Source: Bdellovibrionales bacterium (GTDB taxonomy: Bacteria; Bdellovibrionota; Bdellovibrionia; Bdellovibrionales; UBA1609). From it: 64,000 nt of DNA. Made by a program: the position numbers and the translations under genes. Within the stretch, counting starts at the first letter, position 1; each line of letters opens with the position of its first letter. The notes beneath the pieces were generated by a model. The model worked only from the letters and a program-made list of their open reading frames with translations. It ran no database searches and was not told the DNA's origin. The stretch lies in NCBI GenBank assembly GCA_965197855.1, contig OZ240230.1:64153-128152 (forward strand), written 5' to 3'. Shown here piece by piece: positions 2,678 through 48,800 of the stretch.

Positions 2678-3772
2678 TTATGATCCAGGTTGATTATTCA
2701 TTTTTTCAATATACAAACTCTGGCTGGGGAAAGCAAACTCAACATTCATTTGCTGAGCGAGTTTGAGAATTTCCAGAAAGATATCTTGTCTGAATTGGAG
2801 TTCTTCATTCCAATTGGCTACTTGTAAAAAGAAATTGACAAAAATATTCAAACTAGAATCTGCATAGCCTGAAAAGGACACCTGATAATAATCTTTTTTT
2901 GTTTTAGGATGATTTTGAACAATGTCTTTTATTCCTTTTATAAAAGATTGGATTTTTTCAGTCGAGGTGGAGTAAGTGATTCCCAATGTAAAACGGGTTC
3001 TTCGAAATTTTCTTTTTCCCATATTATCAATTTGGGCATTGGCAATAGTAAAGTTTGGCACGGAGATTACAGAGTCATAAAAGGTTTTAATTTGAGTGGA
3101 TCGAAATCCAATCTGCTCTACAGTTCCTTCTATTTTATCAAATTGAATCCAGTCTCCTACCACAAAGGGGCGGTCAAAGAGAATAACTAAAGATCCAAAA
3201 ATATTGGAGAGAGTGTCTTTGGCAGCTAAGGCGATAGCTAACCCCCCGAGTCCTAGGCCGGCGAGAATAGATGTGACATTGTAGCCCAGGTTTTGAATCA
3301 TAATTAAGCCCCCTACTATGAATATAAGGAAGCTAAGTGTTTTTCTAAAAAATTCAAAGAAAGCCTGATGCTGAGAATATTCTTTTAATTGATTTTTCTG
3401 TACCCGATGGATCAGAGGAGATAAGGTGTGATGAATCAGAAATAAAACAGTTACCCCTATATAAATCTGAAAGAACTTTGTAATTAAGGGAAAATCGTGA
3501 GTTACAACAGAACCAATCAGTAAAACAAAAAGAGCAAAGAGGCCGTGTGGAATCCAAAAACGAAGACCTTTGCAGTCTTTTTGTTTTAAAAAAGGAATAA
3601 GAAAAAAAATCCATCGGCTGAGTATGTAAGAAATGATCAAACAAATGAAGAGGAGGACTGTAAAAGCCAGAATCCCCCATACAATATCGCTCATAAAAAA
3701 GCCGGGCAGTAATTCTTTGTATTTTTCAATAAGCATAGGCGAAAGTTTAATAGCTCTTTCTAATCTCATCAA
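2678..3772 (-). CDS. MscS-family small-conductance mechanosensitive channel
   Basis: 364 aa with several N-terminal TM helices, then the characteristic MscS core LAAKDTLSNIFGSLVILFDRPFVVGDWIQF...GTVEQIGFRSTQIKTFYDSVISVPN. Confidence 0.9.
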   Translation of the reverse strand: MMRLERAIKLSPMLIEKYKELLPGFFMSDIVWGILAFTVLLFICLIISYILSRWIFFLIPFLKQKDCKGLRFWIPHGLFALFVLLIGSVVTHDFPLITKFFQIYIGVTVLFLIHHTLSPLIHRVQKNQLKEYSQHQAFFEFFRKTLSFLIFIVGGLIMIQNLGYNVTSILAGLGLGGLAIALAAKDTLSNIFGSLVILFDRPFVVGDWIQFDKIEGTVEQIGFRSTQIKTFYDSVISVPNFTIANAQIDNMGKRKFRRTRFTLGITYSTSTEKIQSFIKGIKDIVQNHPKTKKDYYQVSFSGYADSSLNIFVNFFLQVANWNEELQFRQDIFLEILKLAQQMNVEFAFPSQSLYIEKMNNQPGS

Positions 3773-5991: not shown

Positions 5992-6900
5992 TTACAGTAT
6001 TTTATTTACTTTGTACTTGTGGCCATTCTTGTAATGATAAGAGCAGTTCTTAGAACAAGTTTGATAAAGTTTATCTTTTTTTATGCAAATGGAACAAACG
6101 ACACATTCTTTATGGCAGTGCTGGCATGAGATGGATTGATCTCCGGCTTGTCCGCAGTGCGGACAGAGTTTGTATTTTTGAGATGGTTTTAATTCTTGGT
6201 TGAGGGTGACTCGATGATCAAACACAAAGAGATCTCCTCTAAATTGAGAGTTTGGAAACTCTTTTAAATAATTAAGAACCCCTCCTTTAAGTTGCTGAAC
6301 TTGTTTAAAACCTTGGGTTCTCATTTCATTGAGAGCTTTTTCACATCGAATACCTCCTGTACAGTAAATAAGAATATTTTTATCTTTTGGAATTGGAGAT
6401 TCTTTTAGTTTTTCTGGAAAATCTTTAAATTGATTGAGATTTAAGTCTAAAGCTGTTTCAAACTTTCCCGCTCGTATTTCATAATTATTTCGAATATCCA
6501 GTAGGATAGATTGTTTATCTTTCATAGCAGATTCCCACTCAGAAGGAGTGAGATGTGTGTTTTCTGAAAAAGGGGAGAGCTTATCTTTTCCTGATGCGAC
6601 CAGTTCTTTTTTAATTTTAACTCTCAGTTTTTTAAATCCCCAGGAATTGGATATTTGCCATTTGGCTTGAATGGGAATTCCTGTCTCTTCGCGTAAAACT
6701 TGTAAATATCTTTTCAGATGACGTAAAGAACCTACTAATGTAGCATTGATACCTTCTCCGGAAAGTAATACCAATCCTCGAAGGCCTAAACCCCTACTGA
6801 GAATAACCTCGCTTAACGTATTGAGACGTTCGCTGGGCAGGGGGTGATAGTGATAAAAGGTGCAGACAGAAAGAGGTTTTTTAGTTAAGAGTGAATTCAT
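5992..6900 (-). CDS. trhO: Rhodanese-domain protein of the YceA/TrhO (UPF0176) family, a putative tRNA uridine(34) hydroxylase
   Basis: 302 aa with the active-site loop YCTGGIRCEKA typical of this family and a C-terminal Cys-rich tail (CPHCGQ...CQHCHKECVVCSIC). Confidence 0.8.
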   Translation of the reverse strand: MNSLLTKKPLSVCTFYHYHPLPSERLNTLSEVILSRGLGLRGLVLLSGEGINATLVGSLRHLKRYLQVLREETGIPIQAKWQISNSWGFKKLRVKIKKELVASGKDKLSPFSENTHLTPSEWESAMKDKQSILLDIRNNYEIRAGKFETALDLNLNQFKDFPEKLKESPIPKDKNILIYCTGGIRCEKALNEMRTQGFKQVQQLKGGVLNYLKEFPNSQFRGDLFVFDHRVTLNQELKPSQKYKLCPHCGQAGDQSISCQHCHKECVVCSICIKKDKLYQTCSKNCSYHYKNGHKYKVNKIL

Positions 6901-6945
6901 GGAAAGGATTGTACTGAAAATAAAAAAAAGGGCAATAATAAAAAG

Positions 6946-7836
6946 ATGGATGTATTAAAAGTTTCAAATTTAGTTAAGAATTATGGGGATTTTTGTGCTG
7001 TGGATGGAGTGTCCCTGCAAGTGCAAAAAGGAGAGATACTAGGGTTGTTAGGACCTAATGGTGCAGGCAAAACCTCTTTGATCCATTCCATTGTTACTGT
7101 GGAGGACTTTCAAAGCGGCTCTATTGAAGTTTGTGGTTATGATTTAAAAAAAGAAACTCGTCTCTGTAAATCAGTTATTGGCTATATGCCTCAGGAGATT
7201 ATCAATCACTCTTATTTTACTTTGGAGGAGGTGCTTTACTATCATTCCGGTTATTATGGGTGTTTTAATAATCAGGATTATTTAGATCATTTAATGAAAA
7301 AGTTTGAACTCTGGGAGCATCGAAAAAAACGTATTATACAACTGAGCGGAGGGATGAGAAGAAGATTGTTGCTTGCCAAATCTTTAGTACACAAGCCACA
7401 GCTTTTATTATTGGATGAGCCCACATCAGGCGTGGATGTAGGTTTGCGGGATGATGTATGGGAGTTTGTTCGACGTTTAAGAGATGAGGGTAAGGCTATT
7501 TTGTTTACCACACACTATCTGGAAGAAGCGGAGAAGCTTTGTGATCGTGTGGCTATTATTCATAAAGGTAAACTGGTTCGACACAATAAAACCAGCAGTT
7601 TGATTCAGGAATTTACCTTAAGAAAACTCAGCCTTCAGCTTAAAACAAAAGTGAATGTAAGTCATAAGTATTTAAAGGTAAATAATGAAAATTACTTGGA
7701 ATTTCAAATTCCATTTTCCTTAGATATAGGTCGTTTGCTGGAAGAAGCCGGTTTGAATTTATCCCAAATTCAGGATATTCAAATTCAAGAGGGTAAGTTA
7801 GAGGATGTGTTCAAAGATGTGTTGGATGGAGAGTAA
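6946..7836 (+). CDS. ABC transporter ATP-binding protein (ABC-2 exporter type)
   Basis: Walker A GPNGAGKTS, ABC signature LSGGMRRRL and Walker B LLLLDEPTSG. A permease gene follows with abutting stop and start. Confidence 0.9.
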   Translation: MDVLKVSNLVKNYGDFCAVDGVSLQVQKGEILGLLGPNGAGKTSLIHSIVTVEDFQSGSIEVCGYDLKKETRLCKSVIGYMPQEIINHSYFTLEEVLYYHSGYYGCFNNQDYLDHLMKKFELWEHRKKRIIQLSGGMRRRLLLAKSLVHKPQLLLLDEPTSGVDVGLRDDVWEFVRRLRDEGKAILFTTHYLEEAEKLCDRVAIIHKGKLVRHNKTSSLIQEFTLRKLSLQLKTKVNVSHKYLKVNNENYLEFQIPFSLDIGRLLEEAGLNLSQIQDIQIQEGKLEDVFKDVLDGE

Positions 7837-9383: not shown

Positions 9384-11288
9384 ATGATTTTTAAAAAAGA
9401 TACAGCCGAATCAGAGGCTCAGCCGGAATCTGTTGGCAAAAAAGTTCAAATTCAAAGAGAAGTTTTACTGACTCAATTGGATAAAGAGGATGCTAACATT
9501 GAACCCAATCCTCATGAAAAATCTTATGGTGATGAATCTCATACTTTTGAAAAATTTTATAATGAAAATATAGCTCAGCAAAACTTTGAAGTGGGCGCTA
9601 TTGTAAAAGGTAAGATTGTGGAAGTGGATGACGATTATGTGGTTGTGGATGTGAATTACAAAAGTGAAGGGCTTATTCCTAAATCAGAATTTCAAGGCGC
9701 TGAAGGTTTTGTCGGTATTGAGATTGGTGGAGAGGTCGAAGTTTATATTGATTCTATTGAAAATGATAATGGAATGATGGGGCTATCTAAGGATAGAGCA
9801 GATATTATTCGTGTCTGGGAAGATATTTCTCGAGTGGCTAAAAATCAAGAAGTTATTGAAGGCACTGTCATCGCAAAAATTAAAGGCGGTTTGCAAGTAG
9901 ATATTGGAGGGGTCAAAGCATTTTTACCCGGAAGTCAATTGGAGCTTCGCCCTGTTAGAAATCTCAATCAGTATTTAGGTAACAAATATTCTTTTAAAAT
10001 TATTAAATTTAATCAGAAGAGAGGAAATATTGTTCTTTCCAGAAGAGTGATTTTAGAGGAAGAAAGAGCCAGCCTAAGAACTCAAACTTTGGACGGCATC
10101 GAAAAAGGTTCGGTTGTCAGTGGTATTGTTAAAAATATTACAGATTATGGTGTGTTTTTGGATTTAGGCGGTATTGATGGACTCTTGCATATTACGGATA
10201 TTAGTTGGAGCCGCATTAAACATCCTTCTGAAAAACTTTCTATTGGTGAGACTATTCAAGTTAAAGTTTTGAAATTTGATAAAGAGAAAAAGAGGGTGAG
10301 TTTGGGTTTAAAACAGCTTCATGAACATGAAAACCCTTGGGAACAAATAAAAAATGATATTAAAGCGGGATCAAAGGTAAAAGGAAAAGTCATGAGCTTT
10401 ACGGATTACGGAGCTTTTGTGGCTATTAAAGAAGGTGTTGAGGGGTTAGTGCATATTAGTGAAATGAGCTGGGGTAAAATAGTTAAAACTCCGTCTGATG
10501 TATTAAAAATTGGTGAGGAAGTGGACTTACAGGTGATTCATGTGGATCAGGAACAACAGCGTATTAGTTTTAGTATAAAAAGGCTTCAGGAAAATCCATT
10601 TCAAAAATGGATTGCTAAGTATCCTGTCGGGGAAAACCAGGAAGTCGTAGTGGATTCTATAATGGATTTTGGATTTCTTGTACATTTTGTAGAGGAGGAA
10701 GAAGTCGAAGGCTTAATTCGTTTAGCGGATTTGACATGGTCTTCTCGAGCTACAAAACCAAAATATCAAATTGGGGATAGAGTGAAAGTTGCTGTTTTAG
10801 GGTTTAATGTGGAAGAGGAAAAATTTCAATTAGGGGTTAAACAGCTTCATAAAAATCCTTGGGAGCAAATTGAATCTCTTTATTCTATTGGCTCCGTCTA
10901 TAAGGTAAAAGTAGTGAAGATTATGGACTTTGGAGCTTTCGTGGAACTGTGTGATCATAAAGATGCTGGAGTTGTAGAGGGTTTAATTCATATTAGTGAG
11001 CTGGATACGAAAAGAGTGGCCAAAGTTGAAGATGTAGTAAAGATTGGAGATGTTTTAGATGCTGAAATTATTACTATGGATAAAGAGTCTCATAAAATTG
11101 GTCTGAGTGTTAAATTAGTTAAGCTGAGACAAGGACCGGAACATGTCTCTAAGGATAAAACTTCAGCACCTATGAAGACTTCTCCTAGTGAATCTGAAGA
11201 ACAAAAAGAAAGTTTCTTTGCAAAAGCTCTTCGTGCTTCTATTTCCAAAGGGAAATCTACTCCAAAAGAAAAATCTGAAGATATATAG
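9384..11288 (+). CDS. rpsA: 30S ribosomal protein S1
   Basis: 634 aa with six recognisable S1/OB repeats (for example GAIVKGKIVEVDDDYVVVDV, GSVVSGIVKNITDYGVFLDLGGIDGLLHITDISW, GSKVKGKVMSFTDYGAFVAI...GLVHISEMSW). The true start could be downstream of the annotated ATG. Confidence 0.9.
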   Translation: MIFKKDTAESEAQPESVGKKVQIQREVLLTQLDKEDANIEPNPHEKSYGDESHTFEKFYNENIAQQNFEVGAIVKGKIVEVDDDYVVVDVNYKSEGLIPKSEFQGAEGFVGIEIGGEVEVYIDSIENDNGMMGLSKDRADIIRVWEDISRVAKNQEVIEGTVIAKIKGGLQVDIGGVKAFLPGSQLELRPVRNLNQYLGNKYSFKIIKFNQKRGNIVLSRRVILEEERASLRTQTLDGIEKGSVVSGIVKNITDYGVFLDLGGIDGLLHITDISWSRIKHPSEKLSIGETIQVKVLKFDKEKKRVSLGLKQLHEHENPWEQIKNDIKAGSKVKGKVMSFTDYGAFVAIKEGVEGLVHISEMSWGKIVKTPSDVLKIGEEVDLQVIHVDQEQQRISFSIKRLQENPFQKWIAKYPVGENQEVVVDSIMDFGFLVHFVEEEEVEGLIRLADLTWSSRATKPKYQIGDRVKVAVLGFNVEEEKFQLGVKQLHKNPWEQIESLYSIGSVYKVKVVKIMDFGAFVELCDHKDAGVVEGLIHISELDTKRVAKVEDVVKIGDVLDAEIITMDKESHKIGLSVKLVKLRQGPEHVSKDKTSAPMKTSPSESEEQKESFFAKALRASISKGKSTPKEKSEDI

Positions 11289-11300
11289 GTACAGGCTATT

Positions 11301-12272
11301 ATGAGTCAGCAAAAGAATTGGTATGATTTTCTCTCTTCCATCAGTCAGAATATTATGGTGGCTGTAAATATCTTGATACTGTTGTTTATTCTGGGTGGAT
11401 GCATGGTTTTTTGTTCCGCCTTTGTTGGCAAATCTTCTTTTTCCTCTATTCGTGAGAGGGTTCCTCAGGATTCTATTTTAGTTCTCAGGTTAGAGGGCGT
11501 CATTATTGATTCATCAGAATTTTTGGAAGATCTTCATGAATATATAGGAGATAAAAAAATTAAAGGAGTGTTGATTCGTGTGAACTCTCCGGGAGGAACT
11601 ACATCAGCCAGTCAGGAGATTTACAAAGAAATTCATCGTTTGAAAGCCTTATATAAGAAACCTATTGTTGTTTCTATGAGTTCTCTTGGAGCCAGTGGAG
11701 CTTTTTATATTTCAATGGCAGGGGATAAAATTGTGGCCAATGAGTCCACTTTAATGGGATCTATTGGTGTTGTGATTTATCTCACTAATTTAGAGAGGTT
11801 ATATGAATGGGCTAAAGTAGAAAATTATGTTTTAAAAACAGGGGAGTTTAAAGATGCAGGCTCTCAATTTCGCCCTTTGACCAATAGGGAGAGGGATTTG
11901 TTTCAAGATTTGATGGATCAATTTTTGAATCATTTCAAAGAAGTTATTATTAAAGATAGAAAACTGTCTAACGAGCTTGTAGAGGAATTTGCAGATGGAC
12001 GTGTTTTTTCAGGAGAAACAGGATTGCTTCAAGGATTTATTGATCAGACGGGCACCTACTATGAAGCTTTGAATCTCATTGGGGAGATGACAGGTTTGGG
12101 AGCGGATCCTGAAATTTTTGAACCCATTAAAAAAGTGGATCGTTGGGTGGAATTATTAAATGCCTCTTTAAAATCACTCTTCCCGTGGTTTCAACAATCT
12201 ATTTTTGTTCCACAGGAATTAAAAGCCCGCCCTCTTTATCTATTGCCTGAGACTATTGGTCTTTCAAAATGA
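11301..12272 (+). CDS. sppA: Signal peptide peptidase SppA (36K type, S49 family)
   Basis: 323 aa with an N-terminal TM helix and S49 motifs IRVNSPGGT and SLGASGAFYIS. Confidence 0.85.
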   Translation: MSQQKNWYDFLSSISQNIMVAVNILILLFILGGCMVFCSAFVGKSSFSSIRERVPQDSILVLRLEGVIIDSSEFLEDLHEYIGDKKIKGVLIRVNSPGGTTSASQEIYKEIHRLKALYKKPIVVSMSSLGASGAFYISMAGDKIVANESTLMGSIGVVIYLTNLERLYEWAKVENYVLKTGEFKDAGSQFRPLTNRERDLFQDLMDQFLNHFKEVIIKDRKLSNELVEEFADGRVFSGETGLLQGFIDQTGTYYEALNLIGEMTGLGADPEIFEPIKKVDRWVELLNASLKSLFPWFQQSIFVPQELKARPLYLLPETIGLSK

Positions 12273-13147: not shown

Positions 13148-13217
13148 GATGACTTGGCTCAGCGATTTCGGTTGGCACCTCAATCGCTTCGCTCCTGCGA
13201 AAGCAGGAATCCAGATC
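13148..13217 (-). repeat. Family A GC-rich palindromic repeat, long form (copy A1)
   Basis: gatgacttggctcagcgatttcggttggcacctcaatcgcttcgctcctgcgaaagcaggaatccagatc. The strand is given relative to the orientation of the copy at 36675. Confidence 0.85.
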
Positions 13218-19216: not shown

Positions 19217-19312
19217 GGATTCCTGCGAAAGCGGGAATCCAGTCAATCTTGGCTCAACGTTTTTGGTTGGCACCTCAACCGCCTCGCTCCTGCGAAAGCA
19301 GGAATCCGGTCA
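19217..19312 (-). repeat. Family A repeat, long form with hairpins at both ends (A3)
   Basis: ggattcctgcgaaagcgggaatcc ... cttggctcaacgtttttggttggcacctcaaccgcctcgctcctgcgaaagcaggaatcc. Confidence 0.85.
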
Positions 19313-44926: not shown

Positions 44927-45124
44927 GTCATCCCTACGTATGTATTATTTACGTCATCCCTTAACACATGCTTTCCTGCCAATACATGCCACCCTTTGCG
45001 CTTGTCATCCCCCTAGGCACGTTGTCATTTCTCAAAGACCGTCATCCTAGCAAAAGCACAAGTCATTCTCATAAAAACACGTCATCTTGTACACACGTCA
45101 TCCCCGCGAAGGCGGGGATCCGCC
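44927..45124 (+). repeat. Array of 8 GTCAT(C/T)(C/T) half-site motifs at about 16-26-bp spacing (one 51-bp gap), ending in a family A hairpin (A9a)
   Basis: Motif starts at 44927, 44953, 45004, 45024, 45041, 45062, 45081 and 45097. Several are preceded by acac or ttac. The last runs into gtcatccccgcgaaggcggggatcc. Confidence 0.7.
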
Positions 45125-45152
45125 TTTCATATACGACTCAGTCTTTGTACGT

Positions 45153-45217
45153 CTGGATTCCTGCTTTCGCAGGAACGAGGCGGTGAGGTGCCAATCGAAA
45201 TCGCTGAGTCAAGTCAC
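45153..45217 (+). repeat. Family A repeat, long form (A9b), abutting the tRNA-Ser-linked tandem elements
   Basis: ctggattcctgctttcgcaggaacgaggcggtgaggtgccaatcgaaatcgctgagtcaagtc. Confidence 0.85.
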
Positions 45218-45238
45218 AGGCACCATATCTTTTTATCA

Positions 45239-45393
45239 TGCGGAGAGAGGGGGATTCACCCACTACAGTCACTCACTTCCAGTTCGTTCCTTGCGTAGGC
45301 TCACTTCAAGCACTAAGCAAAACATCCAGTTTTGCTTCTCCGTATTAGCTGTTTTCACAGCTCACACGGATCGTGTTTTCATTTCGAATCCCC
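45239..45393 (-). repeat. tRNA-linked structured element, Ser copy 2 (tandem; the 202-bp period includes the 47-nt hairpin spacer)
   Basis: Identical to copy 1 except for 2 substitutions that I could find (gattcAcc vs gattcGcc; agctGtttt vs agctAtttt). tgcgg anchors at 45239, 45441 and 45643 give an exact 202-bp period. Confidence 0.8.
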
Positions 45394-45440
45394 ATTAGGA
45401 CAAAAAGATATGAAATCTTCGATCCCATATCTTTTTATCA

Positions 45441-45595
45441 TGCGGAGAGAGGGGGATTCGCCCACTACAGTCACTCACTTCCAGTTCGTTCCTTGCGTAG
45501 GCTCACTTCAAGCACTAAGCAAAACATCCAGTTTTGCTTCTCCGTATTAGCTATTTTCACAGCTCACACGGATCGTGTTTTCATTTCGAATCCCC
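45441..45595 (-). repeat. tRNA-linked structured element, Ser copy 1 (155 nt): conserved core closed by a 9-bp stem and ending in the exact 3' T-stem/acceptor strand of tRNA-Ser
   Basis: The minus strand reads GGGGATTCGAAATG...[core]...CTGTAGTGGGCGAATCCCCCTCTCTCCGCA. The last 20 nt are identical to the 3' end of tRNA-Ser plus its 2 trailing nt. The core is homologous to the Ala-linked copy at 48504-48655. Confidence 0.8.
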
Positions 45596-45603
45596 ATTAG
45601 GAC

Positions 45604-45638
45604 AAAAAGATATGAAATCTTCGATCCCATATCTTTTT
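45604..45638 (-). terminator. A/T-rich hairpin immediately 3' of tRNA-Ser (candidate terminator)
   Basis: 11-bp inverted repeat aaaaagatatg (45604-45614) / catatcttttt (45628-45638). On the minus strand the second arm ends in a T-run. The whole hairpin is duplicated at 45402-45436 as part of the 202-bp repeat. Confidence 0.4.
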
Positions 45639-45644
45639 ATCATG

Positions 45645-45733
45645 CGGAGAGAGGGGGATTCGAACCCCCGAGATGGTTTTAGCCATCTACACGCTTTCCA
45701 AGCGTGCGCCTTCAGCCGCTCGGCCATCTCTCC
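45645..45733 (-). tRNA. tRNA-Ser (anticodon GGA)
   Basis: The reverse complement folds by eye into a cloverleaf. Acceptor GGAGAGA/TCTCTCC plus discriminator G; anticodon stem CACGC/GCGTG with loop TTGGAAA (GGA). There is a long variable arm (TAGATGG...CCATCTC), as expected for Ser. T-arm GGGGG-TTCGAAT-CCCCC. No encoded CCA. Confidence 0.9.
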
Positions 45734-46163: not shown

Positions 46164-48374
46164 TTGAATCACAAAATGAAAGCTTTATCTAATTCGCTCA
46201 CTAAAAAATACCAACATGAACTTCAAGTTTTACAAGATCAAATAGAAGTTCTTCATGAAAAACACATAAAAGAGATCAATCATATTAATCTCAAACATAA
46301 AGCACAAGAGCTTCACCTGCAGGAAACCTATCAGGAAAATGAAGAGCTGATAAAAAATAAACACCATAAAGATGTATGTAAACTCAAAGAAGCTCACCGT
46401 AAAAAAATAACTCAGTTTCATAGTGCAAATCAGAAAAAAATGCGTGTTTTAAGAGAAGCATCTAAAGGAGCAACAACATACGATAATAAGAAACAAATTT
46501 CTAAGTGGCTGAAACATAGAAACCTACTGCAGACAACCATAGGAAGTTTGAAACAGAAATTAGAAGCAAAATCCAGTCAAATCAACACCCTTAAACAGGA
46601 ATTGGATAGTCAATTCCAAAAAATTCAAAATGCTGAACAAATCCACCAAGATCGTATTACAAAAGTGAAAAAAGAGTATGAGGTGAGGGCGCATACTGCA
46701 CATTTGTTACAGCAAACTAAAATGAATCAGTTGCAAAATGAAAATCTTTCTTTAGATAAGTTTAAAGAAAAATATCATGTGTATATTCAAAATCTACAGT
46801 TAAAACATGAATTTAATACTCAGGAAATTAAGAAAAACTTCAGAGCTAAAATGTATGCTTTTCAATTAGCACATAAAAAAGAAATCCAATCTTTAATCCA
46901 GAAATCGTCTGCTCAATCCTCTCAAAAAGACTATGAAGAAAAGATACAAGCGATCCAACAAGACCACACTCAATGTGTAGAAGAGTTGGAGAAAAACTTT
47001 TCTGCTAAATTACATGCACTTCAGCTGAAAAATAAAGCCTCTCTGAATAAAATTAAACAAGACCACTCCTTTAAAAAAATAACTGCTCAGCATAAACAGC
47101 AAATAGCAGAAATAAATAAGCACTATGAAAGTCAAATACGCTGGATGAAGTCTGATTATGAGCAAAATACAGCCCTTATGAAGAAAGACTATGAATCTCA
47201 GATATACCACCTGGAAAGAGAAGAAAATCAAAAAATTAAAGAATTAGAAAAGATTGTTGAAAGCAATGGAAAAGATCAAAAGCTTTATAATGAACTTCAA
47301 AGTAAAGTTGAGAATTATCAACTTCAAGTAAAACAGTTAGAAAATACAATTCAAGACCAATCTGTACAGGAACAAAAATTATTAAAAGAACAAACTCGTT
47401 ATACAGAATTGATAGAAGAACATAAAAATCAAGTCACAGATTTAACAGAGCAAGTTCAAAAGTATCAATCTAACACCGACAATACTCAAGATGATTTTAA
47501 CGTATCCTTAGCTCAGCTTAAAACAAATTATTATAAGGATAAAGTTGACATCAGAAATCAAAGTGAAATTTCTATAAAAAAATTAAAAGCTGAATTTCAT
47601 GCGGATAAACTTTCGTGGATTCAACAGGTTGAAAAAAGGGAATGCCTTTTAAAAGAAACTCATCAAGAAGAGATGACTCAAGTGAAAGCAGATTTTGAAC
47701 AATCTATTCAAAAATTACAAGAATCACAAAATCAAATGGTCCGAAAGTTAAAAGATTCTCACAAAAAAGATATGAAGGAAGTCCGATACAATCTGGAAGA
47801 AGAACTCAAAGACTCTAAAGCTCACTATGAAAAAACTTTAGAAGATTTAGAAGATAATTTTACAAATCGAATAGCAGAGTTAAAAACGTCTCATGAAAAA
47901 CATTTGTATCAATTGAGCAGGGAAATGGAAACTGCTTTAATTGCTGAGAAGAAAAAAAATGAAGAGCTTACTCAACTTTATGACAAGGATACAGTGAATA
48001 TACAAAGAGAACTGTTTTCTTTACAGACACGTTTTAAAACAACTAGTGAAAGTGTGGGTCAATTGACTTCTGAAAATCAAGTATTGTTCACAAGAGTTCA
48101 TAAACTTTTATCTGAGAATCAAACTCTTAAAGATCAATACACTTCAATGCAATTAAATTGGAGTGAAATTAAACAAGAGCTGGAAACTAAAAATAGTCAA
48201 ATTCAATCTCTACAGAAATTAAATCAACATATCAGTCAAACTTTGTTTCAAGTTCGAAAGAAAGCATCAGAAAAAGTTCAAACACCTGTAAAAAAAGACA
48301 GTGTTCAACAGAAACAAACAGGCGGCGAAAAACAAGATGACAGCGATCTTATTTCTGAGCTTCGTTTATATTAG
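46164..48374 (+). CDS. Long coiled-coil protein (K/E/Q-rich), unknown function
   Basis: 736-aa ORF from TTG 46164 (first ATG at 46176), heptad-like and charged almost throughout. The same frame is open with no canonical start codon for 123 further codons upstream (45795-46163). Confidence 0.7.
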   Translation: MNHKMKALSNSLTKKYQHELQVLQDQIEVLHEKHIKEINHINLKHKAQELHLQETYQENEELIKNKHHKDVCKLKEAHRKKITQFHSANQKKMRVLREASKGATTYDNKKQISKWLKHRNLLQTTIGSLKQKLEAKSSQINTLKQELDSQFQKIQNAEQIHQDRITKVKKEYEVRAHTAHLLQQTKMNQLQNENLSLDKFKEKYHVYIQNLQLKHEFNTQEIKKNFRAKMYAFQLAHKKEIQSLIQKSSAQSSQKDYEEKIQAIQQDHTQCVEELEKNFSAKLHALQLKNKASLNKIKQDHSFKKITAQHKQQIAEINKHYESQIRWMKSDYEQNTALMKKDYESQIYHLEREENQKIKELEKIVESNGKDQKLYNELQSKVENYQLQVKQLENTIQDQSVQEQKLLKEQTRYTELIEEHKNQVTDLTEQVQKYQSNTDNTQDDFNVSLAQLKTNYYKDKVDIRNQSEISIKKLKAEFHADKLSWIQQVEKRECLLKETHQEEMTQVKADFEQSIQKLQESQNQMVRKLKDSHKKDMKEVRYNLEEELKDSKAHYEKTLEDLEDNFTNRIAELKTSHEKHLYQLSREMETALIAEKKKNEELTQLYDKDTVNIQRELFSLQTRFKTTSESVGQLTSENQVLFTRVHKLLSENQTLKDQYTSMQLNWSEIKQELETKNSQIQSLQKLNQHISQTLFQVRKKASEKVQTPVKKDSVQQKQTGGEKQDDSDLISELRLY

Positions 48375-48385
48375 TATATCTATAT

Positions 48386-48458
48386 GGGGCTGTAGCTCAG
48401 CTGGGAGAGCGCGACGCTGGCAGTGTCGAGGTCAGGGGTTCGATCCCCCTCAGCTCCA
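48386..48458 (+). tRNA. tRNA-Ala (anticodon GGC)
   Basis: GGGGCTG acceptor (G3:T70 pair present), D-arm GCTC-AGCTGGGA-GAGC and anticodon stem CGACG/TGTCG with loop CTGGCAG (GGC). T-arm AGGGG-TTCGATC-CCCCT and 3' strand CAGCTCC plus A. No encoded CCA. Confidence 0.9.
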
Positions 48459-48467
48459 ATAAAAAAA

Positions 48468-48496
48468 AGAGGGGGCTGTAAGCTCTCTCTTTTTTT
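48468..48496 (+). terminator. Rho-independent terminator after tRNA-Ala
   Basis: 10-bp stem agagggggct (48468-48477) / agctctctct (48481-48490) with two G-T wobbles and loop gta, followed by tttttt (48491-48496). Confidence 0.75.
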
Positions 48497-48503
48497 GTCG
48501 GAA

Positions 48504-48655
48504 GGGGGATCGAATTGAAGTCTCGATTCGTGTTGGCTGTGAAACAGCTAATACGAAGAAACAAAACTAGATGTTTTGCTTAGAGACTGAAGAGAGTCTA
48601 CGCAAGTTGTGAGCGTGAAGCGAACAACTGTAGTGGGCGATCCCCCTCAGCTCCA
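48504..48655 (+). repeat. tRNA-linked structured element, Ala copy (152 nt): same core as the Ser copies but ending in the exact 3' T-stem/acceptor strand of tRNA-Ala
   Basis: It reads GGGGGATCGAATTGAAG...[core]...CTGTAGTGGGCGATCCCCCTCAGCTCCA. The last 18 nt (CGATCCCCCTCAGCTCCA) are identical to tRNA-Ala 48441-48458. The closing stem is 48504-48512 / 48638-48646. Internal hairpins are at 48536-48548, 48562-48578, 48584-48599 and 48605-48629. Confidence 0.8.
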
Positions 48656-48800
48656 TGTCAAATGGCAATAAAGTGTGAATATTTTACATTCCTTTAGAGA
48701 TAATTTAATATGTTTATGAAAAATAATACTATTTTATTGGCTTTTATAGTGTTTTCGAATATATCAGTAATTAATATATTTTTAATAAAGGAAAACAATT

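Follow-up and report, generated by a model that had tools for sequence, protein, structure and literature searches.

A covarying structured module closed by copies of the adjacent tRNA 3' end recurs downstream of tRNA genes in Bdellovibrionales-like bacteria

Direct repeats from the T-loop to the 3' end of a tRNA gene are a hallmark of P4-type integrases and of ICEs (integrative and conjugative elements). The islands, ICEs and cis-mobilizable elements (CIMEs) of P4-type tyrosine integrases leave the tRNA intact, are bracketed by such repeats of about 18 nt, accrete in tandem at one site and have non-autonomous, att-flanked derivatives. In IS110/IS1111 insertion sequences (ISs), the bridge or seek RNA is a structured non-coding RNA (ncRNA) with a target-complementary patch, and a change of this patch alters specificity. 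Related to these is ssr9, the small RNA (sRNA)-only module of ISPpu9, which forms minicircles and is proposed to spread by an IS110-family transposase supplied in trans (PMC12288879). In our literature searches, ssr9 was the sole useful precedent for the element reported here, of which no description was found. It lies downstream of tRNA-Ala(GGC) and tRNA-Ser(GGA) in a 64-kb stretch of contig OZ240230.1 from a Bdellovibrionales bacterium, the whole of which is called the window in the following. Direct repeats that start in the T-loop, as they do around it, are the classical mark of recombination at the 3' ends of tRNA genes; what departs from this pattern is that the insert amounts essentially to a single conserved, strand-specific, covarying structure, with one end copying the target and the other being its complement. 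With a probability of roughly 0.45, we read the element as a non-autonomous RNA module that is inserted site-specifically and whose specificity segment matches the target, belonging to a previously undescribed family.

Scanning of the window with ARAGORN and Rfam revealed two tRNA genes, tRNA-Ser(GGA) and tRNA-Ala(GGC), the former followed by two tandem copies of the element and the latter, which does not encode CCA, by one (Table 1). No further copy was detected in the window using nhmmer and a covariance model. An earlier note, made from the letters of the window alone, had described the Ala copy as an element past the tRNA-Ala terminator that ends in the last 18 nt of its tRNA; all features listed there were recovered, including the identity of the two 18-nt stretches. 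Its estimate by eye that about three quarters of positions match between the loci agrees with the measured identity of the Ala and Ser cores, namely 79% over 105 nt and 72% over a further 54 nt.

The unit was found to have a recurrent layout. The tRNA sequence up to G53 T54 T55 is followed by C56 to N73 and 0 to 40 additional nucleotides, usually by an A-run, a hairpin and a T-run, then by the 5' segment and the core, which closes with GTAGTGGG (variants GTAGG, GTAAG), and by C56 to N73 again. Comparing 20 of these terminal tails from 13 loci with the adjacent tRNAs, positions 56-73 were found to differ at 2 of about 360 positions, both being position 56, and a chance match of tails to tRNAs is excluded. 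The terminal repeats measure 18, 18, 18, 19, 20, 21, 22, 22, 26, 36 and 60 nt; they begin at C56 in 13/13 loci, one end thus being fixed in the T-loop, and the other end usually lies 0-4 nt from the discriminator. At the opposite terminus, the 5' segment is the reverse complement of the tRNA from T54 onward over 8-15 nt, as exemplified by AGGGGGATCGAA for Ala, GGGACTCGAA for His and GAGGAGGGATTCGAA for Asn. It matches the target better than the tail: its terminal AA fits tRNA T54-T55 and not the GG ahead of the tail, and in the Asn copy (L014) a G fits tRNA C56 and not the A of the tail. No second tRNA-tracking segment of 7 nt or more, including a guide for the left flank, was detected in the unit. 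The proposal of the earlier note that a conserved scaffold carries termini tracking the neighbouring tRNA holds for eight tRNA species. An origin of the tail from mature tRNA was considered and rejected, as no tail carries CCA except that of L012, whose gene encodes it, and several repeats run past the tRNA end.

Relatives of the window copies were reached by three routes, namely synteny of BamA, a pattern scan covering one genome per species, and a search of a protein collection for mis-annotated open reading frames (ORFs), the last because the antisense strand of the element is open in two frames. BamA homologues place the window among Bdellovibrionales-like metagenome-assembled genomes (MAGs). 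Synteny yielded a locus set (L001) with four tandem copies after tRNA-Ala(GGC) and 3.6 after tRNA-Ser(GGA), and another (L025) with one Ala copy and an empty Ser(GGA) site. The pattern scan of the genome collection matched only MAG RHO3_bin_17, with two copies after tRNA-His(GTG), one plus a partial copy after tRNA-Ala(TGC), single copies after tRNA-Ser(TGA) and tRNA-Ala(GGC), and an empty tRNA-Ser(GGA). Via the spurious ORFs, copies were found after tRNA-Phe(GAA) in L011, another tRNA-Ser(GGA) in L012, tRNA-Gln(TTG) in L013 and tRNA-Asn(GTT) in L014, a more GC-rich organism. Altogether, the 13 loci lie on eight tRNA species (Ala-GGC, Ala-TGC, Ser-GGA, Ser-TGA, His, Phe, Gln and Asn), all in Bdellovibrionales-like metagenome assemblies. 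The association with tRNA genes, on which the earlier note had staked its claim, was strict: each copy immediately follows the 3' end of a tRNA gene and shares its strand, and the covariance model detected none away from a tRNA in 239 kb. Pattern scans of JGI metagenomes (3 matches, lacking nhmmer similarity and a tRNA) and of IMG/VR viral contigs (10 matches) returned chance matches only, and blastn of the element against phage and plasmid collections returned none. We conclude that the family is real but rare and clade-restricted.

The open antisense frames across the element extend over 45087-45398, 45332-45550 and 45373-45600 (+) in the window and 12491-13360 in L001. Their peptides, of the types ...AHYS.S...LRRL... 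and ...SPTTV...CVGSLQ... (proteins P0011-P0015), are called hypothetical proteins in public MAGs, e.g., OXK80_01890, and these ORFs are spurious.

The interior of the element was found to fold into six helices comprising 49 pairs, and RNAalifold and individual minimum free energy (MFE) folds agree on this architecture. In the Ala copy, J1/2 (UUGAAG) is followed by P2, the hairpins P3 and P4, J2/5 (UGAAGNGAG), P5 (GYCUAC/GUGGGC) and the hairpin P6, after which the core terminates in GTAGTGGG; the P4 loop is C-U-R-G-A-U-G. The closing stem that the earlier note had drawn from the two termini was present in the folds, where the Ala 5' end GGGGGATCG pairs with CGATCCCCC and the Ser 5' end GGGGATTCG with CGAATCCCC. 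In this stem, P1, the first 10 nt of the Ala 5' segment form the 5' strand and tail positions 56-65 the 3' strand, and the acceptor 3' strand stays unpaired. Folding z-scores were -7.0 for the Ala and -5.7 for the Ser element, with 0/200 shuffles folding as well in either case.

Covariation was quantified on 16 sequences (49 pairs, 784 pair-cells), with shuffles and partners slid by 1-3 columns as controls in place of R-scape. Standard pairs were present in 92.7% of the pair-cells compared with 38-47% in the slid controls, the covariation score was 0.485 compared with 0.09-0.12, and 0/500 shuffles reached the observed value on four of five measures. The compensatory changes pointed out earlier for single hairpins proved general, 33 of the 49 pairs having changed on both sides. 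In the copies of His, Phe, Ser(TGA), L012, Gln and Asn, P3 is wholly different in its bases but still forms a long hairpin. The junction positions N and N' covary as U/A, A/U, G/G and G/U. Since G-U/U-G cells outnumber A-C/C-A cells 54 to 10, the tRNA-sense strand is the folding strand. The same strand also folds with DNA parameters (z = -6.4); taken together, the data point to RNA as the folding molecule, with single-stranded DNA of the top strand being less likely.

Rfam searches at E up to 1 matched no family to any member, returning only tRNAs and chance matches; thus, the models for omega-RNA, HEARO, IS605 RNA, ribozymes and group I/II introns gave no match, and no Rfam or sequence similarity to bridge or seek RNAs was observed. 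A sub-threshold tmRNA_permuted match (48434-48481, 32.7 bits against a threshold of 47) was discarded, as it covers only the T-arm and acceptor strand of tRNA-Ala and the terminator, and ARAGORN detects no tmRNA. Likewise, a CUGAAGA string resembles the hammerhead motif CUGANGA, but the would-be A9 varies (A, U or G).

Table 1. Features of the Ala and Ser loci in the window and structural parts of the element
Feature	Position	Strand	Evidence or remark
tRNA-Ala(GGC), host of the Ala copy	48385-48459	+	ARAGORN; Rfam tRNA match, 60.4 bits
Ala direct repeat 1, tRNA C56 to discriminator A73, CGATCCCCCTCAGCTCCA	48441-48458	+	18/18 identical to 48638-48655
A-run, hairpin GAGGGGGCT/AGCTCTCTC, T-run; terminator-like	48460-48497	+	Between tRNA-Ala and element; hairpin with T-run spans 48462-48496, G-U pairs on + strand
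Whole Ala element, 152 nt	48504-48655	+
Ala 5' target-matching segment ('guide'), AGGGGGATCGAA	48503-48514	+	Reverse complement of tRNA-Ala T54-U65, 12 nt
Ala conserved core	48515-48637	+	Alignments, RNAalifold, pair counts, covariance-model match 170 bits
Ala direct repeat 2 ('tail'), second copy of tRNA C56-A73	48638-48655	+
tRNA-Ser(GGA), host of the Ser array	45644-45733	-	ARAGORN; Rfam
Whole Ser array	45223-45661	-	Three copies of a 35/36-nt repeat (tRNA C56 to 3' end, then TGATAAAAAGATATGG, 16 nt of flank), with two 202-nt units between them (45223-45626, mutually 99% identical); terminator-like hairpin in each unit, 45399-45439 and 45601-45641
Ser proximal element	45443-45595	-	Covariance-model match 171.7 bits; guide GGGGATTCGAA at 45595-45585, tail CGAATCCCCCTCTCTCCG ends at 45443
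Ser distal element	45241-45393	-	Tail has T for C at position 56
P1			5' segment paired with tail, 7-12 bp
J1/2			GAA-N-UGA
P2			Bears hairpins P3 and P4
P4 loop			C-U-R-G-A-U-G
J2/5			GAAG-N'-GAG
P5			GCCUAC/GUGGGC, abuts P1
P6			Hairpin

Neither Pfam scans of the window ORFs nor the genes listed at L001 and L011-L014 revealed a recombinase, transposase or reverse transcriptase; this negative covers a tyrosine integrase inside or alongside the element, a DEDD (RuvC-like) transposase beside it, and tnpA, tnpB or iscB nearby. The neighbours of the element are bamA, a coiled-coil ORF and housekeeping genes. In L026, a more distant relative without the element, a 508-aa protein with a C-terminal HNH domain and a YhgA-like (Transposase_31) gene flank bamA near tamB (6114-7640 and 10809-11927) with no Rfam RNA nearby; both were dropped as partner candidates, the locus lacking the element.

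Compared with the described systems, the element matches every family imperfectly, at least one defining feature failing in each. The islands, ICEs and CIMEs share with it the repeats of the tRNA end (18-60 nt here, in 13/13 loci), but measure kilobases and not about 200 bp and carry an integrase and genes, and their interior is free of single-strand constraint, whereas that of the element is a strand-specific six-helix fold under purifying selection, with its compensatory pairs and one-strand G-U excess. Moreover, one scaffold here serves eight tRNAs by means of an internal segment complementary to each target. It is therefore quite unlikely in our view that the element is an ordinary tyrosine-integrase product (CIME-like or IMEX-like, with an 18-nt tRNA 3'-end site and tandem accretion) or a folded single-stranded att site, in which the P5-P1 duplex would mimic the T-arm site of the tRNA gene in the manner of integron attC or CTX-phage attP. 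The repeats from the T-loop to the tRNA end, 18-22 nt in most loci, the tandem accretion and the folding of the strand with DNA parameters would agree with such an origin, as would a tRNA-Ser fragment in L013 that is joined from C56 to unrelated DNA. Yet double-stranded att arms select neither for six helices with 33 compensatory pairs nor for G-U pairs, eight T-stem sequences would need eight integrase specificities, no integrase was seen at any locus, nothing similar was found in phage, plasmid and viral collections, and the element is constrained, not decaying. The suggestion of the earlier note that it is a degenerate integrative element hence stands for the integrase-type direct repeats from the T-loop and falls for the degeneracy. 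With attC and CTX-phage attP, the element has in common that structure is kept over sequence, that tandem arrays occur and that the target site could be offered as a duplex by a folded strand; it lacks the R''/R' boxes (RYYYAAC / GTTRRRY) of attC, its fold is far more complex, and its G-U abundance favours RNA. The attC crossover is G|TT, while the junction here follows TT(C) and reads GTGGG|CGA, with 1 of 20 copies reading GTG|TTCGA.

The L013 fragment is an observation in its own right. Downstream of the tRNA-Gln element (about 2930-3360, minus strand), a stretch of about 215 nt starting with a terminator hairpin occurs twice, and the two copies are parted by TATCCAATATTAAA and a 3' fragment of tRNA-Ser whose first base is again precisely C56 (CGAATCCCTCTCTCTCCGCCA). 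This T-loop breakpoint is joined to DNA without the structured core, a hint that recombination at T-loops may be more general in these genomes.

The earlier note had also raised a miniature mobile element in the style of IS200/IS605 palindrome-associated transposable elements (PATEs); we considered it here as possibly carrying an omega-RNA that uses the flanking tRNA sequence as 3' guide. Such a relation has its appeal in the size of about 200 nt, in a hairpin near the left end and another at the right end, in the apparent insertion at a fixed short motif (GTT/GTTC), and in a conserved scaffold followed by a flank-derived tail of 18-20 nt, as TnpB/IscB omega-RNAs have a scaffold of about 130 nt followed by a flank-derived 3' stretch of about 18 nt; miniature non-coding derivatives of the IS200/IS605 family exist. 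We consider it scarcely credible, since PATEs insert without target duplication or direct repeats, whereas repeats of 18-60 nt, which the IS200/IS605 family does not make, bracket the element at every locus. In addition, the fold is a six-helix multi-junction one and not two subterminal hairpins, the tail is sequestered in P1 by pairing with the 5' end, and the intact tRNA persists, so that the target of an omega-RNA bearing this tail would be the very locus already occupied; TnpA and TnpB genes as well as Rfam matches to IS605 or omega-RNA models are lacking, as given above. The expectation that the core would resemble no known IS or prophage end was borne out by the Rfam, phage and plasmid searches.

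Two further likenesses concern architecture. A retron msr-msd ncRNA is similarly about 150-200 nt long, with paired 5' and 3' ends and short hairpins followed by a long one, but the element has no adjacent reverse transcriptase, its closing stem consists of tRNA sequence, and it is tRNA-linked and arrayed. In bridge RNAs, bipartite guides for target and donor sit in two internal loops, whereas the element, whose fold contains no such loops, has one 5'-terminal tracking segment that is paired to a copy of the target; it is bracketed by long direct repeats where IS110/IS1111 elements have a 2-nt core.

In the favoured reading, the module, a structured nucleic acid of about 155 nt usually joined by the terminator hairpin, would insert into the T-loop of a tRNA gene at T55|C56 or C56|G57. 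The tRNA would stay intact, the module would become bracketed by direct repeats of the tRNA 3' part, and unequal recombination between these may expand or contract tandem arrays. The tRNA-sense strand, most likely as RNA from read-through or co-transcription with the tRNA, would fold into the six helices, P1 joining the 5' segment, complementary to T54 to about C65, with the distal copy of the tRNA end. We infer that the 5' segment is the specificity determinant, so that one trans-acting enzyme could serve modules for different tRNAs, and that the conserved core may be the part recognised by this enzyme or needed for a function of the RNA itself. A site-specific insertion process is required because identical junctions occur at eight tRNAs, and recognition via the element's own matching segment is favoured because the eight different T-stems argue against eight protein specificities. 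Of the three hypotheses in the earlier note, the scaffold-plus-guide RNA accordingly fits best: its strand-specific fold with the G-U excess over A-C was observed, while transcription and any guide activity are putative.

A more specific version, which we regard as unlikely, is that the module is a new type of RNA-programmed mobile element, P1 being an RNA copy of the target duplex (tRNA gene 56-65). At a matching T-arm, the strands of P1 would swap partners with the DNA strands, the 5' segment pairing with the top and the tail with the bottom strand, and a trans-acting recombinase or reverse transcriptase would be directed to cut T55|C56 and insert the module. If true, this would explain the duplication of variable length with one fixed end, and it would allow retargeting by a change of 10-12 nt and the use of one enzyme for at least eight tRNA targets.

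Copy number was found to range from 0 to 4. In the four syntenic genomes, Ala copies number 1, 4, 1 and 1 and Ser(GGA) copies 2, 3.6, 0 and 0, the Ser(GGA) site thus being occupied in two and empty in the others; in L001 and L005, the distal copies are incomplete through truncation. At the orthologous Ala(GGC)/bamA locus of four species, the element is 86-93% identical compared with 76-84% for bamA DNA. It is under purifying selection or continually homogenised, as judged from these identities, and not a decaying remnant, because it is better conserved than bamA DNA. The second Ala copy of L001 (12881-13037) has the core-tail junction GTAGTG-TT-CGATCC in place of GTAGTG-GG-CGATCC and so carries tRNA T54-T55, which indicates gene conversion or an alternative crossover with the tRNA gene. 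Mosaic composition was also observed: the His copy resembles Phe in its 5' domain and Ala in its 3' domain, and the window Ser(GGA) element is nearer to the Ala element than to its Ser(GGA) counterpart in L012, which itself resembles the Ala element less. These mosaics suggest that elements recombine with one another and that retargeting occasionally takes place between tRNAs whose T-arms are similar, which for Ser and Ala would need about 2 changes in the 5' segment.

That the element is retained at one orthologous locus and is better conserved there than a coding gene agrees with a host-useful RNA no less well than with a selfish element. In this alternative, which we hold to be rather unlikely on balance, a domesticated host sRNA matured from tRNA 3' trailers, by now encoded by a stable gene, would act in tRNA biology, e.g., by sensing its own tRNA's 3' half or by sequestering or handling it; P1 would ensure that the second copy of this half does not mispair with the body of the tRNA in the read-through RNA, and past insertions would explain only the arrival of the module. 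Besides the conservation, the invariance of the unpaired acceptor-strand part of the tail and the lack of a nearby mobility gene are in line with it. It is opposed by the identical junctions at eight tRNAs, which need site-specific insertion, by the Ser(GGA) site being empty in 2/4 syntenic genomes, by a copy number of 0 to 4, which would be odd for a dosage-sensitive gene, and by the module being confined to some tRNAs; tail invariance may also result from gene conversion between the repeats.

Clues to expression bear on both readings. No sigma-70-like consensus promoter was found inside the unit, and most units in addition stand behind a strong terminator-like hairpin, so that expression is putative. 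The hairpin travels with the element: homologues of the one at the Ala locus occur in the Ala, His and Phe units of relatives, and at several loci an apparent native tRNA terminator follows the last tail. The hairpin shares GGGGCTGTA with the 5' end of tRNA-Ala, but an origin as relic of that end was rejected and the likeness judged a coincidence, because hairpins of this family are also present in the His and Ala(TGC) units, where they show no match to the respective tRNAs. The Gln copy lies 16 nt after its tRNA with no hairpin or terminator between, implying co-transcription with the tRNA, which would suit a host RNA. For a co-transcript of tRNA-Ala and element (48386-48658), the predicted MFE structure is a domain-swapped fold, in which the distal tail is bound by the 5' strands of the tRNA acceptor and T-stem, and the 5' segment forms 12 bp with the proximal T-loop and the 3' strand of the T-stem. 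According to this prediction, a read-through RNA could toggle between two topologies, and the duplicated end would interact thermodynamically with the tRNA, again as expected of a host RNA.

The same predicted fold, a tRNA whose T-loop carries the whole module, would also suit a T-loop intron-like or self-processing RNA, from which the segment between U55 and the distal C56 is removed or rearranged at the RNA level, P1 aligning the junction after the conserved terminal G of GUGGG. It would then be meaningful that the core always ends in G before C56, that the 5' segment pairs across the junction with tRNA U54-U55-C56, and that the fold is under purifying selection. However, a complete tRNA and terminator precede the module, so processing is not needed, no ribozyme or intron model matched at E up to 1, the core of about 125 nt is smaller than known self-splicing introns, and the CUGANGA-like string is not conserved at A9. 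We therefore regard this explanation as very improbable.

Returning to the site-specifically inserted RNA module, several points besides the conservation weigh against it. The enzyme it calls for was not encountered in the window or among the listed genes at L001 and L011-L014, and neither was a promoter in the unit. Should the module bring along its own replacement tRNA end, two changes would have to be coordinated for each retargeting. Should the repeat be a target duplication, we know of no bacterial precedent for its variable length (18-60 nt). Moreover, sequestration of the 5' segment in P1 sits awkwardly with a guide role. Finally, the 13 loci stem from about 7-9 assemblies of one narrow clade, a small sample collected through the element itself.

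The window is otherwise ordinary chromosome with tamB, bamA, PBP1, argS, tsaD, S1 and similar genes. A separate family of palindromes resembling repetitive extragenic palindromic (REP) sequences, GGATTCCTGCnnnCGCAGGAA(TGACG), was detected with 10 matches compared with 0.01 expected in the window, at 13192, 19217-19240, 19287, 33957, 36677, 39585, 45155 and 49250, and also at 44952, 45040 and 45096. The motif CGTCATYC is enriched as well (12 compared with 1.2 expected). Several such sites are located immediately distal to the Ser array and close to the Ala locus, and similar palindromes (GTCATTCCGGACTTGATCCGGAATCC) follow the elements in L011 and L025. The tRNA loci are flanked by large eukaryote-like proteins, encoded at 36109-39567 (+), 46164-48374 (+) and 42317-44860 (-); one has a leucine-rich repeat array and a reprolysin-type metallopeptidase, and two are long coiled-coil ORFs with no Pfam domain above the curated cut-off. 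Together with contigs of 1.4-2 Mb among relatives, these proteins suggest a host-associated lifestyle.

If the 5' segment sets the insertion site, the module would represent a compact natural means of programmable DNA placement at a chosen sequence that leaves the target gene undamaged, and the principle of closing a scaffold with a copy of the target would set it apart from CRISPR, omega-RNA and bridge-RNA systems. As a host RNA, it would apparently be the first bacterial ncRNA class built on a duplicated tRNA 3' half and would point to unsuspected tRNA-linked biology in host-associated Bdellovibrio-like bacteria. Either way, the element constitutes a well-supported new structured RNA family that public models have missed, and several hypothetical proteins of MAGs are explained as spurious antisense ORFs.

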